Origin: a virus
Virus record (IMG/VR): IMGVR_UViG_3300043395_004689
Span: 1-64,000 of that record
Strand: one strand, 5' to 3'
Length of the DNA: 64,000 bases
The translations under genes and the position numbers were made by a program. Position 1 is the first letter of the stretch, and each line of letters begins with the position of its first letter. Under the pieces are notes generated by a model. That model did no database searches, was not told the origin of the DNA, and saw only the letters and a list, made by a program, of their open reading frames with translations. This document shows, in pieces, positions 10,091-14,335 of the stretch.

Positions 10091-10249
10091 ATGAAACAAC
10101 GTAAGCTAGTTGCTAAGTTGTATCGGGCTTGCTTTGACCATGACACAGAAACTATTGCTGAACTCCGTAAAAAAGAGTTTGCGAAGATACTGAAACGCAA
10201 GGCCGAAGGTAAGCACTTTACAACTAAGTGGACCATTGTGCAAGTGTAA
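10091..10249 (+). CDS. Small basic hypothetical protein (52 aa, not in ORF track)
   Basis: AAGGAGGGGTG RBS; [18 protein letters not shown]... Confidence 0.7.
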
Positions 10250-10283
10250 TAAGATCGAAATACAAAGAGCGATAAGTAAGGAC

Positions 10284-11060
10284 ATGATGCCCAAAACTTA
10301 TCGCTCTATTTTTATTAGTGATGTACACCTTGGTACCAGAGATAGTCAAGCAGACAGGCTGAATAATTTTTTAAAAAACAATACTTGCGATACACTTTAT
10401 CTGGTTGGCGACATTCTTGATGTGTGGCGCATACAGCAAAATAAATGGCGCTGGAAGCAAAGTCATACCAATGTGATTCGCAGAATACTGGGGCATGCCA
10501 AGCGAGGTACAAGGGTAATTTATGTGGCAGGTAATCACGATGAGTTTTTGCGTCCGCTGATGCCTTATGGTATTAATTTTGGCAATGTAGAAGTTGTGAA
10601 TCAATTTGAACACATAGGCGCAGACGGCAAACACTATTTGGTAACACATGGCGACCTGTTTGATGGCATTACAAGATTAGCACCGTGGATAGCATTTTTA
10701 GGAGACAAGGCCTATGACTTTGTGTTGTCTGCCAACAGCAAATTCAACTGGATACGACATCGTATGGGATTTGGATATTGGAGCCTAAGCAAGTACCTAA
10801 AACAGCGTGTTAAAAAAGCAGTGGACTTTATGTTTCAATTTGAAAAGAATCTAGCAGCTTATTGTAAAAAGCGCGGCTATGACGGAGTAATTTGCGGACA
10901 CATTCATCATGCTGAGATCAAAGAAATAGACGGCGTTGTGTACATGAACGACGGTGACTGGGTAGAATCATGCACAGCTCTAGTAGAGCACCACAACGGT
11001 CGCTGGGAAATAGTAACTTGGATTCGGGAGAAAGATGATGTGGTCAAAGAAAGCACATAA
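10284..11060 (+). CDS. UDP-2,3-diacylglucosamine hydrolase-like metallophosphoesterase (LpxH/LpxH2 family)
   Basis: SDVHLG, GD, GNHD, HGD, GHIH calcineurin-like motifs; start revised from 10236. Confidence 0.85.
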   Translation: MMPKTYRSIFISDVHLGTRDSQADRLNNFLKNNTCDTLYLVGDILDVWRIQQNKWRWKQSHTNVIRRILGHAKRGTRVIYVAGNHDEFLRPLMPYGINFGNVEVVNQFEHIGADGKHYLVTHGDLFDGITRLAPWIAFLGDKAYDFVLSANSKFNWIRHRMGFGYWSLSKYLKQRVKKAVDFMFQFEKNLAAYCKKRGYDGVICGHIHHAEIKEIDGVVYMNDGDWVESCTALVEHHNGRWEIVTWIREKDDVVKEST

Positions 11061-11064
11061 AGAA

Positions 11065-11775
11065 ATGAAGCTTAGTGATAAAATTACCATTGTAGTACCT
11101 TGCAAGAACGAAGAAAATTACATACATCATTTGTTGGATTCTCTTCGCGCTCAAAATATTGAAGACACCAGAGTCATTATTGCTGACTGTTCTACCGACA
11201 ACACTCGTCGGGTGATAAAAGAAAACAGCTACGGTTTAAATGTTGAAATCATAAATGGTGGTCCTGTTTCTGTTGCCAAAAACAACGGTGCCAGATTAGC
11301 AACCACTCCGTACATATTATTCATTGATGCTGATGTGCGTTTCTTTTCTAACCTGGTAATCAATGACGCAGTTCGTATAATTGATTCCAAAAATCTAGAC
11401 CTTGTTGGGCTAAACATCAAGTGTTATGATCGCGATCTTAGAGCCATCATTGGCTTTAAAATTTTCAATGTCATAAACAATGTATTAAAGTTTTTTACTC
11501 CGTTTGCAGTAGGTGCATTCATGCTAACACGAAGAGATCGGTTTGAGGAATTTGGTGGGTTTCCAGAAAAGTTTTCTACTTCAGAAGATTATTTTTTGTC
11601 GCGTATGTATAGCCCTAAGAAGTTTAGAATCGTCAATCATTATTTTGGACAAGACTCGAGACGATTTAAAAAAATGGGCTACTTGGGTATGGCTATGTAC
11701 CTAATAAAAAATTTCATCAATCGCAACAATCGTGCATACTGGGACCGTTTAGATTCTTCAAAGTATTGGAATTAA
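11065..11775 (+). CDS. Glycosyltransferase family 2
   Basis: IVVPCKNEE, DCSTDNT, FIDAD (DxD), SED. Confidence 0.9.
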   Translation: MKLSDKITIVVPCKNEENYIHHLLDSLRAQNIEDTRVIIADCSTDNTRRVIKENSYGLNVEIINGGPVSVAKNNGARLATTPYILFIDADVRFFSNLVINDAVRIIDSKNLDLVGLNIKCYDRDLRAIIGFKIFNVINNVLKFFTPFAVGAFMLTRRDRFEEFGGFPEKFSTSEDYFLSRMYSPKKFRIVNHYFGQDSRRFKKMGYLGMAMYLIKNFINRNNRAYWDRLDSSKYWN

Positions 11776-11787
11776 AAATCTAAGACC

Positions 11788-11795
11788 TATAAATA
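11788..11795 (+). promoter_or_regulatory. T4-like late promoter box
   Basis: Exact TATAAATA in an intergenic gap. Confidence 0.65.
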
Positions 11796-11815
11796 TTGGT
11801 CAGGAGGATTTGACC

Positions 11816-11863
11816 ATGAACGAAGAATGTCCAATTTGCGGTGGTAAACACCCTAAGAAATAA
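11816..11863 (+). CDS. Micropeptide MNEECPICGGKHPKK
   Basis: CAGGAGG RBS upstream, own TATAAATA box, double TAA stop; CxxCxxxH. Confidence 0.6.
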   Translation: MNEECPICGGKHPKK

Positions 11864-11883
11864 TAAGGATCTAGTGTATAGCT

Positions 11884-13293
11884 ATGAAAGCAAATAATTT
11901 CAGCAACGATAGCTTTTGCCCTGAAGTGTACAATCAAATTCAGATTGATATGCAGGGCGATTTAAAAGTTTGTTGTCTATCTTCGGATGGTGGACTAGCC
12001 AAGGACCTTGATGGAACACCAATGAATGTAAAAACACATTCAATTGTTGCTGCAATGAACAGCGAAACACACAAGCAGCATCGACTAGATCTAAGCAATA
12101 ATATCAAGCCTCAGAGATGCAGTAATTGTTATAATTGGGAAAATCACAGCAATAACATAAGTCGTCGTAAAAAGTTTATCAGACTGTCTGAGCATACACT
12201 GGACTATGTCAAAGCCGGTGAAGCATTTGATGTAACAAACGATGATGGTTCCATTGATGTTGACACTACCAAGCTGATAAACTTAGATATAAGATTTGGT
12301 AATCTTTGTAATCTCAAGTGCATTATGTGCGATCCAGGAAACAGCAGTTTGTGGTACGAAGACTGGGAACTACTATCTAGAAAATTTTCAAAAACTCGAC
12401 CCAATGGTAGATCAGTAAAATTTTCTTTGGGCGGCATAGATCCTGCGACAGGAAACACACAGTATTGGAAAGACAAAGACAAATTCTATTTGCTGGAAAA
12501 AAATCAGCACGGAAAGCTAAAATTACAAAACGAAGAAAACTGGTGGGAAACAGAATCCTGGAAAACTCAGTTTGTAAAAATTGCACCACAATTACAGTAC
12601 ATCTATTTCACTGGTGGTGAGCCGTTGCTGGTCCCAGCAATGGAAGACCACTTGGCTTACCTGGTTGAAAACGACTTCGCTAAAAATATCATGCTCTGCT
12701 ACGATACAAATTTAACAGTTGTCAATCCAGGTATTATCGACAAATGGAAATTTTTTAAAGATGTTGAATTGCGAATCAGCGTCGACGACACAGGAGATCG
12801 CTACAATGTAGTTCGCAATCCTGGAAACTTTGACAAGCTTTGTGACAACATAAATCGTGTTCAACAGACCAATATAAAAATTAAGCATGTGAGCATAGTC
12901 TGCCATTTGGCTAATGTTTATGGGGTAGTTCGTGTTGCTAAACTTGCAAAACAGCTAGGCATTGGAATGTCTCTGCGATTTGTGTCTAGGCCAACTTGGA
13001 TCAATGTGTTGAATCTGCCGCAGTCTGCCAAAGAAGAAGTAATTGCAACTCTCACCAAATTCTTAGAATCAGACGAATGTGAGTCTATTCACGGATATGA
13101 AAATTTTGTCCACCAACAAATAAAGTATTTTCAAAATAACCTAACAGCACCATACACAGAGTCAGACCTAGAAACTTTTGTGCAGGTAATGAATCTAATG
13201 GACCAATCCAGAAATCTCAATTGGAAAGAAACACTATCGGATGTTGCACAGTTACTTAGAAATCATTGCCCAACACTGGCCCTAGATCAATAA
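11884..13293 (+). CDS. Radical SAM protein with N-terminal SPASM/Twitch-like domain
   Basis: FC..GDLKVCC..CSNC N-terminus; CNLKCIMC; FTGGEP. Confidence 0.9.
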   Translation: MKANNFSNDSFCPEVYNQIQIDMQGDLKVCCLSSDGGLAKDLDGTPMNVKTHSIVAAMNSETHKQHRLDLSNNIKPQRCSNCYNWENHSNNISRRKKFIRLSEHTLDYVKAGEAFDVTNDDGSIDVDTTKLINLDIRFGNLCNLKCIMCDPGNSSLWYEDWELLSRKFSKTRPNGRSVKFSLGGIDPATGNTQYWKDKDKFYLLEKNQHGKLKLQNEENWWETESWKTQFVKIAPQLQYIYFTGGEPLLVPAMEDHLAYLVENDFAKNIMLCYDTNLTVVNPGIIDKWKFFKDVELRISVDDTGDRYNVVRNPGNFDKLCDNINRVQQTNIKIKHVSIVCHLANVYGVVRVAKLAKQLGIGMSLRFVSRPTWINVLNLPQSAKEEVIATLTKFLESDECESIHGYENFVHQQIKYFQNNLTAPYTESDLETFVQVMNLMDQSRNLNWKETLSDVAQLLRNHCPTLALDQ

Positions 13294-13298
13294 ATTGG

Positions 13299-13327
13299 TT
13301 GACCTTTATGCCATAATATGGTATAAT
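13299..13327 (+). promoter_or_regulatory. sigma70-type early promoter
   Basis: ggTTGACC-17nt-TATAAT. Confidence 0.8.
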
Positions 13328-13333
13328 GGTTGT

Positions 13334-13543
13334 ATGCTAAATTCAATACTCAAATGGACCGCTTGTGTAGTTGTGTGTGCTGGTGCTCTGTGTACCAGCT
13401 TACGCATTGATCCGGTCAACATCTATTTGCTTAACATTGGTACAACATTGTACCTGATATGGTCCATACGCATACGCGAAACAAACTTAATAGTGGTTAA
13501 TGGTTTACTCTTGGTCCTCTACGCTGTGGGCGTGTTTGTTTAA
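13334..13543 (+). CDS. Small membrane protein (probably leaderless)
   Basis: Hydrophobic 69-aa ORF; ATG 6 nt after the -10 box. Confidence 0.7.
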   Translation: MLNSILKWTACVVVCAGALCTSLRIDPVNIYLLNIGTTLYLIWSIRIRETNLIVVNGLLLVLYAVGVFV

Positions 13544-13597: not shown

Positions 13598-13625
13598 TTG
13601 ACCTTTGGGCTAATGATGCTATTAT
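13598..13625 (+). promoter_or_regulatory. sigma70-type early promoter
   Basis: A-tract, ggTTGACC-16nt-TATTAT. Confidence 0.6.
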
Positions 13626-13654: not shown

Positions 13655-13741
13655 ATGAACCTTATTAAGAACATCGTTGGTGGGCTTGGCTTTGCGGCTC
13701 TTTTTTATGCTTTTGCTTTTGCAATTGCTTTGACAAACTAA
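13655..13741 (+). CDS. 28-aa hydrophobic peptide (not in ORF track)
   Basis: AGAGGA RBS; MNLIKNIVGGLGFAALFYAFAFAIALTN. Confidence 0.5.
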   Translation: MNLIKNIVGGLGFAALFYAFAFAIALTN

Positions 13742-13752
13742 GTTGGTATAAT

Positions 13753-13827
13753 GGGCTGGTAGCTCAGAGGAAGAGCGAGGGACTCTTAACCCCTAGGTCG
13801 AGATTTCAAAATTCTCCCAGCCTACCA
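13753..13827 (+). tRNA. tRNA-Lys(CUU) with encoded CCA
   Basis: Cloverleaf: GGGCTGG/CCAGCCT, GCTC/GAGC, AGGGA-CTCTTAA-CCCCT, GAGAT-TTCAAAA-TTCTC, ACCA. Confidence 0.9.
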
Positions 13828-13843
13828 ATTTACAATATATTAT

Positions 13844-13936
13844 GGCGGAAGCGAGGCACTGACGAGTGCCATGGCTGTTCGGACGAAGCCTCCGGGACAC
13901 TCCTGGGAAAGTAGGTTCAATTCCTACCTCCGCCCA
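13844..13936 (+). ncRNA. tRNA-like RNA with tRNA(Sec)/allo-tRNA geometry and an aberrant anticodon arm
   Basis: GGCGGA/TCCGCC acceptor; 6-bp D-stem GGCACT-GACG-AGTGCC; long V-arm; T-arm GTAGG-TTCAATT-CCTAC. Confidence 0.75.
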
Positions 13937-13946
13937 CTAATGTCGG

Positions 13947-14027
13947 CCCACCGGACTGGGATACGCAGGTGGGAGTGGATCGGGTCGCTGTGCTGAGCCC
14001 TGCTCGCGAGCTGACTCGGTCCATTTT
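13947..14027 (+). ncRNA. GC-rich two-hairpin structured RNA or terminator downstream of the tRNA-like gene
   Basis: CCCACC/GGTGGG stem; long AGTGGATCGGGTC.../...GACTCGGTCCATT stem with G-U pairs; T-run. Confidence 0.5.
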
Positions 14028-14080
14028 ACTTTGGTTAACGATTTACAAAAAGTAATTAACCAATCTTAACTAAAAAGTGG

Positions 14081-14109
14081 TTGACAGCTTGATCCAACCC
14101 TGTTATTAT
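14081..14109 (+). promoter_or_regulatory. sigma70-type early promoter
   Basis: A-tract, ggTTGACA-17nt-TATTAT. Confidence 0.75.
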
Positions 14110-14134
14110 GGTCACATAAAGAGGAGATAGACAG

Positions 14135-14335
14135 ATGGAACTGATTAAAGCGATCAAATCCTGCAAGGAAGTCTTCGTTGAAGTGCAAATGCCCAGCACT
14201 TATATCTGGGTGAAGGCTTCCAAGAAGGACCTGCTGACTCACATGCAAGCCAATCGGGACTTCAACTCCAAGGAAATGTACATCGTCACCCGTTACGGTA
14301 ACTTGTCCTTGTATCTTGCCCCTGAAAAGGCATAA
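14135..14335 (+). CDS. Hypothetical early protein
   Basis: GAGGAG RBS. Confidence 0.75.
   Translation: MELIKAIKSCKEVFVEVQMPSTYIWVKASKKDLLTHMQANRDFNSKEMYIVTRYGNLSLYLAPEKA

Follow-up and report, generated by a model that had tools for sequence, protein, structure and literature searches.

What use has a phage for an RNA that keeps the body of a tRNA and offers no anticodon? The question is posed by the segment 13844..13935 (+ strand) of IMG/VR virus record IMGVR_UViG_3300043395_004689, a 103-kb freshwater virus record (G000) of which the first 64,000 nucleotides are the window analysed here. This segment, 92 nt long and referred to below as the mimic, begins after a 16-nt spacer behind an ordinary tRNA-Lys(CTT) gene, where a sequence-only reading of the window had placed it. 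Codon supply is the usual explanation for phage tRNA genes, joined lately by the replacement of host tRNAs that defence systems destroy. A conserved, non-decoding tRNA-shaped RNA suits neither explanation, and suggests that phages use the tRNA body itself, attracting processing enzymes or occupying host factors that bind tRNA. The reading that we favour, as the probable one, is that the mimic is a functional, non-decoding RNA that is handled by the enzymes of tRNA maturation.

Fold of the mimic

The arms of the mimic are listed in Table 1. The window mimic was folded as 13844-13936, for which a four-armed cloverleaf is the minimum free energy (MFE) structure (-40.9 kcal/mol, z = -2.75; 2 of 200 dinucleotide shuffles were equally stable). 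What the sequence-only reading had said of the arms, stems and loops is borne out, and the window mimic has neither a UCA anticodon nor an encoded CCA, also as described. The T arm follows the canonical tRNA rule, with G53-C61 and the loop bases U54 U55 C56 R57 A58. The acceptor/T branch has at most 12 stacked pairs, which can be drawn as 7/5, as 8/4, or as 7 with a bulged A plus 5. In the 8/4 register, which is the one in the ARAGORN drawing, G8-C84 takes the place of G68-C84 and an A.C mismatch is present; the MFE structure favours 7/5. As the acceptor is invariant in our sample, covariation is silent on this choice. G1-C72 and G2-C71 are present, and the third pair is C-G.

A hammerhead reading of CUGACGAG was rejected, as stem II is unable to form and Rfam gave no match. 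The idea of a HisRS substrate (G-1:C73) was also dropped, as a T precedes G13844 and the helix has 12 layers, not 13.

Relatives of the mimic

Twelve homologous copies were found in freshwater viral and metagenome contigs, and the fold is kept. A pattern derived from the tRNA-Lys led to two viral contigs, L020 and L021, in which the same element stands behind the same tRNA-Lys. An acceptor-anchored pattern applied to metagenome contigs gave 57 matches, of which 11 are true by covariance-model score (72-108 bits) and the remaining 46 are chance matches without any tRNA. Acceptor-free patterns recovered only L020, L021 and a 1.2-kb contig binned with a Rhodobacteraceae metagenome-assembled genome, which is too short to name a host. 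Three further patterns were uninformative: the exact D arm plus T loop had zero matches among the viral contigs, the T arm plus acceptor matched unrelated phage tRNA-Met genes only, and the D hairpin alone had 7 matches, all by chance.

Three phage contigs (L002-L004) are related to the window through a radical SAM gene (83 % identity). At the corresponding place they carry other tRNAs and no homologue of the mimic, and their tRNA sets differ. A weak 17-bit match of a single-sequence model in the records of L002 and L003 proved to be their tRNA-Ser(GCU). GC-rich non-coding stretches that ARAGORN does not call were noted between the tRNA genes of two of these contigs (L004:7600-7800 and L002:6000-6130), one of them with a T-arm-like GCGGGUUCGAUGCCCGG.

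Variation and covariation

The set used for comparison comprises 7 distinct sequences, window included, and an eighth variant could be read from a contig of an RNA library. In none of the 7 variants does the 'anticodon' loop have 7 nt; its length is 10 or 8 nt, and the eighth has no length change there. The window has a 10-nt loop (Table 1). The commonest variant has the 8-nt loop GUAGGUGA (L020, L021, L023, L069, L067, L043 and L039), and the other loops are GUUCGGAUGA (L025, L057, L058 and L087) and GAUCGGACGA (L077), the latter with A at the place of U33. The stem, GGCU/AGCC, is invariant across the variants, the central loop bases vary (UCGGAC, UCGGAU, AGGU), and the shorter loop has one base fewer on either side of a central NGGN. 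Read by eye, the closed arm may be a 4-bp stem followed by G.A and U.G (A.G in one variant; also U.C/U.U) and an NGGN tetraloop. Pairing of the loop with the 3' end of 16S rRNA was considered and rejected, as AGGUGA is confined to one loop type; pairing with the connector CGAG is likewise not conserved.

The sequence-only reading had named a normal 7-nt loop in close relatives as the sign of a recent pseudogene or an assembly error. Since there are 12 homologous copies and no variant has such a loop, the mimic is, as far as the sequences can tell, neither of these.

For covariation, the window's own fold was used as the structure, with a model-guided alignment of the 7 variants. Mean column identity is 90 %, and standard pairs occupy 99 % of the pair cells. 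Five pairs are changed on both sides, three in the D stem (C-G to U-A, A-U to G-C, C-G to U-A) and two in the variable stem (G-C to C-G, A-U to U-G). None of 500 shuffles reached this count, and structures slid by 1-3 columns gave 0-1. Homologue covariation, which had been proposed as a check, is hence seen in both of these stems, and the eighth variant adds U.G and C-G changes in the D stem with pairing kept. The acceptor was fixed by the search pattern, so that the acceptor, T and 'anticodon' stems are uninformative on covariation, either way.

The same cloverleaf is the MFE structure of 5 of the 7 variants folded on their own. The D arm has 5 bp and one pair across a UU bulge in most relatives, and 4 bp with a 7-nt loop in L043 and L039. 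The T loop is UUCAAUU or UUCGAGU, and both keep U54 U55 C56 R57 A58. Insertions and deletions occur only in the connector (UU) and in three loops, those of the D, closed and variable arms. Every copy has C as discriminator, and none has an encoded CCA after the mimic. The open reading frames (ORFs) that overlap the mimic in the window (13871-13996 on the + strand; 13793-13900 and 13917-14024 on the - strand) lose their frame in relatives through indels of 2 and 4 nt. Because of the compensated changes, the canonical T loop, the indels that avoid stems and the island of conservation described below, simple decay of the mimic appears unlikely; the evidence supports a maintained RNA, as the sequence-only reading had supposed.

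Detection and comparison with known families

With ARAGORN at default settings, the sole call in the whole 103 kb is the tRNA-Lys, and this is also the sole report of Rfam at gathering thresholds. In a permissive search of 401 nt, the general tRNA model RF00005 did not match the mimic even at E = 10. At an 80 % threshold (-ps80), ARAGORN calls the mimic 'tRNA-?(Pro|Ser)(cgga)', with a 5-bp stem closed by G.A and the 8-nt loop UUCGGACG. Similar mimics may be under-counted in phage genomes, as standard tRNA finders and Rfam miss this one.

The sequence-only reading had likened the element to tRNA-Sec and allo-tRNAs, with ARAGORN and a tRNA-Sec model among its suggested checks. This label has to be given up. 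Scores against the tRNA-Sec model (RF01852) are 13.9 bits for the window and 19.8 bits for L020, against a gathering cut-off of 47 bits, and the 3' part alone aligns. There is no UCA in a 7-nt loop, the branch has 12 and not 13 bp (8/5 in bacteria), and the discriminator is not G73. The 6-bp D stem with 4-nt loop, which is of the tRNA-Sec type, is present in the window and not kept in most relatives. The mimic does share with allo-tRNAs, and with inactive allo-tRNA(UAU), the long D stem with a tetraloop, the long variable arm and a possible 8/4 branch (Mukai et al. 2017, PMC5389517). However, in allo-tRNAs an anticodon can be read in a 7-nt loop and the discriminator is mostly G73 or U73, whereas the mimic has no anticodon and C. 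Of the traits by which the same authors define the class (an 8/4 or 9/3 branch, a normal anticodon loop on a long stem, a long variable arm and G73 or U73), the long arm is present and covaries, but there is no readable anticodon loop, the stem has 4 Watson-Crick pairs, the discriminator is C, the 6/4 D arm is not conserved and 8/4 is indistinguishable from 7/5.

A tmRNA was excluded, as a relaxed ARAGORN tmRNA search was negative and the third pair, C-G, leaves no G3:U70. YrlA, or bacterial Y RNA (RF02553), does not match the element, and the 28-bit match in L020 falls on two real tRNAs.

Resemblance to tRNA-Tyr

The comparison genome for ancestry is G004, a complete 155-kb phage genome with terminal repeats that holds contig L020. 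It has 17 ordinary tRNAs, including two tRNA-Ser and one tRNA-Tyr, as well as a permuted tmRNA. Among 12 of its tRNAs, the best alignment to the mimic is that of the class II tRNA-Tyr(GUA) at 71619-71707 (global z 8.2, against 0-4.6 for the 11 others). The match is strongest in the 3' third (z 8) and weaker in the 5' two-thirds (z 2.9, 1 of 500 shuffles), for which none of seven other tRNAs tested exceeded z 1.5. The T arms are nearly identical (GUAGGUUCGA[A/G]UCCUAC), the acceptors are related (GGGGAAG/CUUCCCC in tRNA-Tyr, GGCGGAAG/CUCCGCC in the mimic), and both have a long extra arm, with the strings GACGGG and CUGUA in common, the latter forming the first 5 nt of the anticodon loop in tRNA-Tyr. 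Unlike tRNA-Tyr, the mimic lacks GUA, a 7-nt loop and an encoded CCA, has C for A at the discriminator, and has a long tight D stem with a tetraloop in place of a GG-containing D loop, together with a 7-bp variable stem. An encoded CCA ends the six G004 tRNAs that were read (two Ser, Tyr, Ile and two Leu) and the tRNA-Lys next to the mimic, and never the mimic. Descent of the mimic from the class II tRNA-Tyr of this phage clade is likely but not proven.

Conservation between two phages

G000 and G004 are distantly related phages. With tblastn, 14 of 134 ORFs of at least 100 aa match between them, at a median amino acid identity of 37 %, and with blastn there are only three shared stretches (Table 1). 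The module formed by tRNA-Lys and the mimic is by far the best-kept DNA between the two. Either strong selection or recent lateral transfer can explain this island; whichever it was, the compensated changes in the stems speak for selection on the fold from then on.

Table 1. Features of the mimic and its surroundings in the window, with the stretches shared between G000 and G004
Feature	Position	Strand	Details and basis
Sigma-70-type promoter (TTGACC, 16-nt spacer, TG-TATTAT)	13598..13625	+	Consensus match only, 10/12, TG before -10
Gene for 28-aa hydrophobic peptide (ends FAFAIALTN, stop)	13655..13741	+	AGAGGA 8 nt upstream; first gene of the tRNA transcript
tRNA-Lys(CUU)	13753..13827	+	Ordinary, encoded CCA; ARAGORN; Rfam tRNA 53.3 bits
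tRNA mimic	13844..13935	+	MFE fold, relaxed ARAGORN, covariation on 7 variants, per-variant folds
Mimic acceptor	13844-13850 with 13928-13934	+	GGCGGAA/CUCCGCC, A.C mismatch at 13850/13928
Mimic D arm	13855-13870	+	6-bp stem GGCACU/AGUGCC, loop GACG
Closed 'anticodon' arm	13873..13890	+	4-bp GGCU/AGCC, 10-nt loop GUUCGGACGA
Mimic variable arm	13891-13907	+	7 bp including two G.U pairs, 3-nt loop
Mimic T arm	13911-13927	+	GUAGG-UUCAAUU-CCUAC
Mimic 3' end	C 13935	+	Unpaired, discriminator place; ...CUCCGCC-C-ACUA, no CCA after
Hairpin H1 (CCCACC...GGUGGG)	13947..13973	+	Folds and alignments of downstream region, 8 contigs
Long hairpin (about 20 bp), then UUUU	13974..14027	+	MFE folds
Next promoter	14081-14109		
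Shared stretch: tRNA-Lys and mimic	13754-13941		90.5 % identical to G004 (190 nt)
Shared stretch: hairpins, spacer, next promoter	13939-14137		77 % identical to G004
Shared stretch: part of downstream gene			82 nt; third blastn stretch common to G000 and G004

Organization of the transcript

No cloverleaf comes after the mimic in any of the eight contigs that reach far enough, and in all eight the same pair, H1 and the long hairpin, stands behind it. The peptide gene lies directly upstream of the module in five contigs (including L043, L067, L057 and L058), two of them without tRNA-Lys. These two are L057 and L058, where the mimic directly follows the peptide gene, with the trailing RNA and the hairpins kept. 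Because both are retained there without tRNA-Lys, the mimic and its trailing RNA form the constant unit. The genes that flank the module differ between contigs. The 5' leader of the mimic (13828-13843, ..ACAAUAUAUUAU|G) is conserved even where the upstream gene is a different one (L057: ..AAUACAUAUUAU|G); it looks like a -10 box too close to serve the mimic, and may be leader context for RNase P.

H1 always stands 10 nt behind the mimic, or about 130 nt in the long form described below, and its loop is conserved (15-17 nt, GGACUGGGAU..GCA). A 10-mer that it shares with the anticodon stem of tRNA-Tyr is not significant (z 1.8, 20 of 300 shuffles). The long hairpin is probably, judging from its predicted fold, the intrinsic terminator of the operon, and a simple terminator scan did not flag it. 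Its strands differ jointly between window/L043 and L020/L077. With a loop sequence that is conserved, next to a long stem that covaries between lineages, H1 may have a role beyond that of a terminator part.

The family has two forms, a short one as in the window and a long one with an insert between the mimic and H1. This insert X is 122 nt long and nearly invariant, and is found in about half of the family (L020:2549-2670; L025, L057, L058, L077 and L087). Its boundaries are clean (CTTAT|...GGAA|TGTCG), and it would fall between 13940 and 13941 of the window, where it is absent. Only 2 substitutions were seen in it, though the backgrounds otherwise differ. Its folding energy is ordinary (z 0.03), it has zero Rfam matches, and an AGAGGGG box in it precedes a possible GTG frame of 15 codons. 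It could represent a short mobile element, or else an RNA gene or peptide gene in its own right.

At least part of the stretch is contained in 24 public runs, all from fresh, aquatic, riverine or estuarine water and most with only a small share of it, and four of these are RNA libraries. The RNA runs contain low-depth contigs only, and gaps in their cover of the stretch carry no information. One freshwater metatranscriptome has a 317-nt contig of depth 2 that extends from 7 nt before tRNA-Lys, through the mimic, to 125 nt into insert X. A co-transcript could account for it, as could DNA carry-over.

A non-decoding role and its alternatives

With loops of 8 or 10 nt in all variants, a non-decoding role is the best reading, and here our analysis and the sequence-only reading agree. 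The course of events that we favour would begin with a class II tRNA-Tyr of the clade, whose acceptor helix, T arm, D arm and long variable arm were kept and whose anticodon arm was closed into a short irregular hairpin, leaving no triplet on offer. Transcription would start at the sigma-70-type promoter and cover an operon of peptide gene, tRNA-Lys, mimic (the last cloverleaf) and two hairpins. Host RNase P would cut on the 5' side of the mimic, and an RNase Z-type cut would follow the unpaired C on the 3' side, as suggested by the fact that the mimic alone among the tRNA-shaped genes of the phage has no encoded CCA. The L-shaped body so released, presumably stable, would act in trans and outside translation as the double of a class II tRNA, and would present its elbow, long variable arm and acceptor end to a host factor that binds tRNA. 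The likeliest partner would be an anti-phage tRNA nuclease or a tRNA-end-modifying toxin of the kind that knows tRNA-Tyr or tRNA-Ser by its variable arm. As a side effect, the downstream hairpin RNA would be freed by the 3' cut. A CCA-adding enzyme, a Ro60/TROVE gene and a class II synthetase core were looked for in five related records (G000, G004 and three others) and not found, so whatever handles the mimic RNA would come from the host.

In favour of a double acting in trans, the whole L shape is kept, including the 7-bp variable arm, and the sequence is nearly frozen. Known anti-phage systems are guided to class II tRNAs by this arm: Septu/PtuAB cuts the variable loop of tRNA-Tyr, and a phage tRNA-Tyr rescues infection (PMC13096335, PMC11555353). 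The toxin MenT3 picks tRNA-Ser through its long variable loop (PMC11162799), and PARIS is neutralized by a phage tRNA-Lys (PMC11464382). A cassette that joins tRNA-Lys to a tRNA-Tyr-like mimic, and that is better kept between distant phages than any other DNA, fits an anti-defence unit. The decoy step, taken alone, is nevertheless put forward only tentatively, and several points weigh against the scheme as a whole. The tRNA-Tyr ancestry depends on one comparison genome. The family is small and shallow (7-8 variants at the mean identity given above), and the invariance of its acceptor, T and 'anticodon' stems says little when the acceptor was fixed by the pattern. Recent lateral transfer, and not long selection, could be the source of the high identity between distant phages. 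If the decoy were aimed at factors acting on the CCA end, one would expect CCA to be encoded, as it is in the real tRNAs of the phage. Of possible partner proteins, none of the three kinds named above is encoded in G000 or G004. The sole support from RNA libraries is the 317-nt contig, which may represent precursor or contaminating DNA, and the contigs reveal no ends.

About equally likely as a defence decoy is a role in cis, as a processing handle. The cloverleaf would then serve mainly for exact RNase P and RNase Z cuts in a polycistronic transcript, separating the peptide mRNA and tRNA-Lys from the downstream RNA of H1 and the long hairpin (with insert X in the long form) and giving that RNA a defined 5' end; the mimic itself would be a by-product. 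We regard this as possible, though less probable than the favoured reading as a whole. An encoded CCA is an anti-determinant for RNase Z, and a handle is favoured in that the CCA missing from this tRNA-shaped gene, and from no other, is what an RNase Z cut requires. The constant position of the mimic as last cloverleaf before the same two hairpins also fits, as do L057 and L058, where the transcript has no other tRNA to punctuate it. RNase P and RNase Z, however, need little beyond an acceptor/T minihelix and an elbow, whereas compensatory changes have kept the D stem and the 7-bp variable arm, and the sequence and not only the structure is nearly frozen between phages whose proteins are 37 % identical. 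Moreover, in the window the tRNA-Lys 16 nt upstream could already punctuate, and the downstream hairpins may be merely the terminator of the operon. What a handle does have is a viral precedent in layout: every contig reaching that far has a CCA-less tRNA-shaped element followed by hairpins, as in the MHV68 TMERs, where a tRNA-like element and two hairpins are separated by tRNase Z cleavage (PMC4838037).

The remaining explanations are all improbable, and fall off further in the order in which they are taken here. A carrier outside the ribosome would be charged by a host synthetase that ignores the anticodon (SerRS via the variable arm, or another), and would donate its amino acid to a tailoring or transfer reaction or sequester the synthetase. 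The structurally conserved long variable arm, G1-C72 and G2-C71, and the radical SAM/SPASM and glycosyltransferase genes 0.5-2.8 kb upstream are in keeping with this. Bacterial TyrRS and LeuRS need A73, and no aminoacyl-transferase or synthetase gene travels with the module. Some allo-tRNAs are irregular and charged or expressed, yet unused in translation, but SerRS wants G73 or U73 according to the same report (Mukai et al. 2017, PMC5389517). Given the discriminator C, the absence of G3:U70 for AlaRS and of G-1 for HisRS, and the lack of an anticodon, charging seems unlikely, and the missing CCA adds to this. Slighter still is the case for a decaying tRNA-Tyr pseudogene that looks conserved because its cassette moved recently between phages. 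The family is indeed shallow, the module stands out as an island amid DNA that is otherwise unrelated, as expected after a recent transfer, and by comparison with tRNA-Tyr the anticodon loop, the discriminator and the CCA are all 'damaged'. Against this, stem changes are all compensated or wobble (L043 and L039 have the sole break, in a loop-closing pair), the T loop has changed within its consensus, indels fall in loops and connector only, and the downstream spacer and promoter have drifted to 77 % while the mimic with tRNA-Lys stands at 90 %. Least credible is a decoding tRNA with an expanded anticodon loop, for quadruplet or other unusual decoding, although ARAGORN at -ps80 can model one and the loop GUAGGUGA can be written as G32 U33 AGGU G37 A38. 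The sequence-only reading had entertained a four-base frameshifting tRNA. The commonest variant, however, has a loop two bases shorter than that of the window, so no single anticodon register is conserved between close variants; L077 has A for U33, the central bases vary, and the general tRNA model stays blank. With no 7-nt loop, no conserved register, a U33 that is not invariant and only 4 Watson-Crick pairs in the stem, decoding by the mimic is very unlikely.

A more specific version of the non-decoding role, which is speculative and which we rate below the decoy step alone, is that the module is a mobile anti-defence unit. In it a working tRNA-Lys would be combined with an anticodon-less double of tRNA-Tyr that jams an enzyme reading the variable arm and is harmless to translation. 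The candidate targets, as part of the same conjecture, would be a Septu/PtuAB-type nuclease or a nucleotidyltransferase of the MenT/AbiE type, the toxin family of MenT3 being related to AbiE. If true, this would be the first description in a phage of a tRNA decoy that consists of RNA only and does not decode. The mimic is small, has a clear set of natural variants and is directly testable in a surrogate host.

Comparison with other systems

In how it works, the mimic would resemble non-decoding viral tRNA-like RNAs. In the literature searched, we found no description of a phage tRNA-like RNA with the anticodon arm closed in this way. Like the MHV68 TMERs, it is a viral, non-decoding, tRNA-shaped RNA without an encoded CCA and with two hairpins on the same transcript, and the TMERs are by analogy the obvious model for a 3' cleavage that frees downstream RNA (PMC4838037). 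They differ in having a eukaryotic host, transcription by RNA polymerase III and hairpins that are Dicer substrates, and there is no sequence relation.

The phage tRNAs that act against defence are a second point of reference. T5 tRNA-Tyr is described as acting against retron-Eco7/PtuAB, and T5 tRNA-Lys against PARIS (PMC11555353, PMC11464382, PMC13096335). The cassette resembles these in pairing tRNA-Lys with a tRNA-Tyr-like body and in being the best-conserved island between distant phages. However, the anti-defence tRNAs described so far are working, decoding tRNAs that replace or outnumber the host tRNA that is cut, whereas the mimic could only compete or bind.

The genes for RNAC and RNAD of phage T4 lie within the T4 tRNA cluster. 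These are stable small phage RNAs of still unknown function (PMC9697503), and their likeness to the mimic is one of description alone.

Neighbouring genes and other RNA genes

Upstream of the operon (10236-13543), Pfam matches identify a metallophosphoesterase, a family 2 glycosyltransferase, a radical SAM protein with an N-terminal SPASM-like match and a small DUF6552-like protein. The permuted tmRNA gene of G004 was located by ARAGORN at 84572-84881 (in L083), with the tag ANDNGFAVALAA. Genes for tRNA-Ile(UAU) with a long extra arm, 91-92 nt in length, are present in L004 (7247-7338) and G004 (71308-71398).

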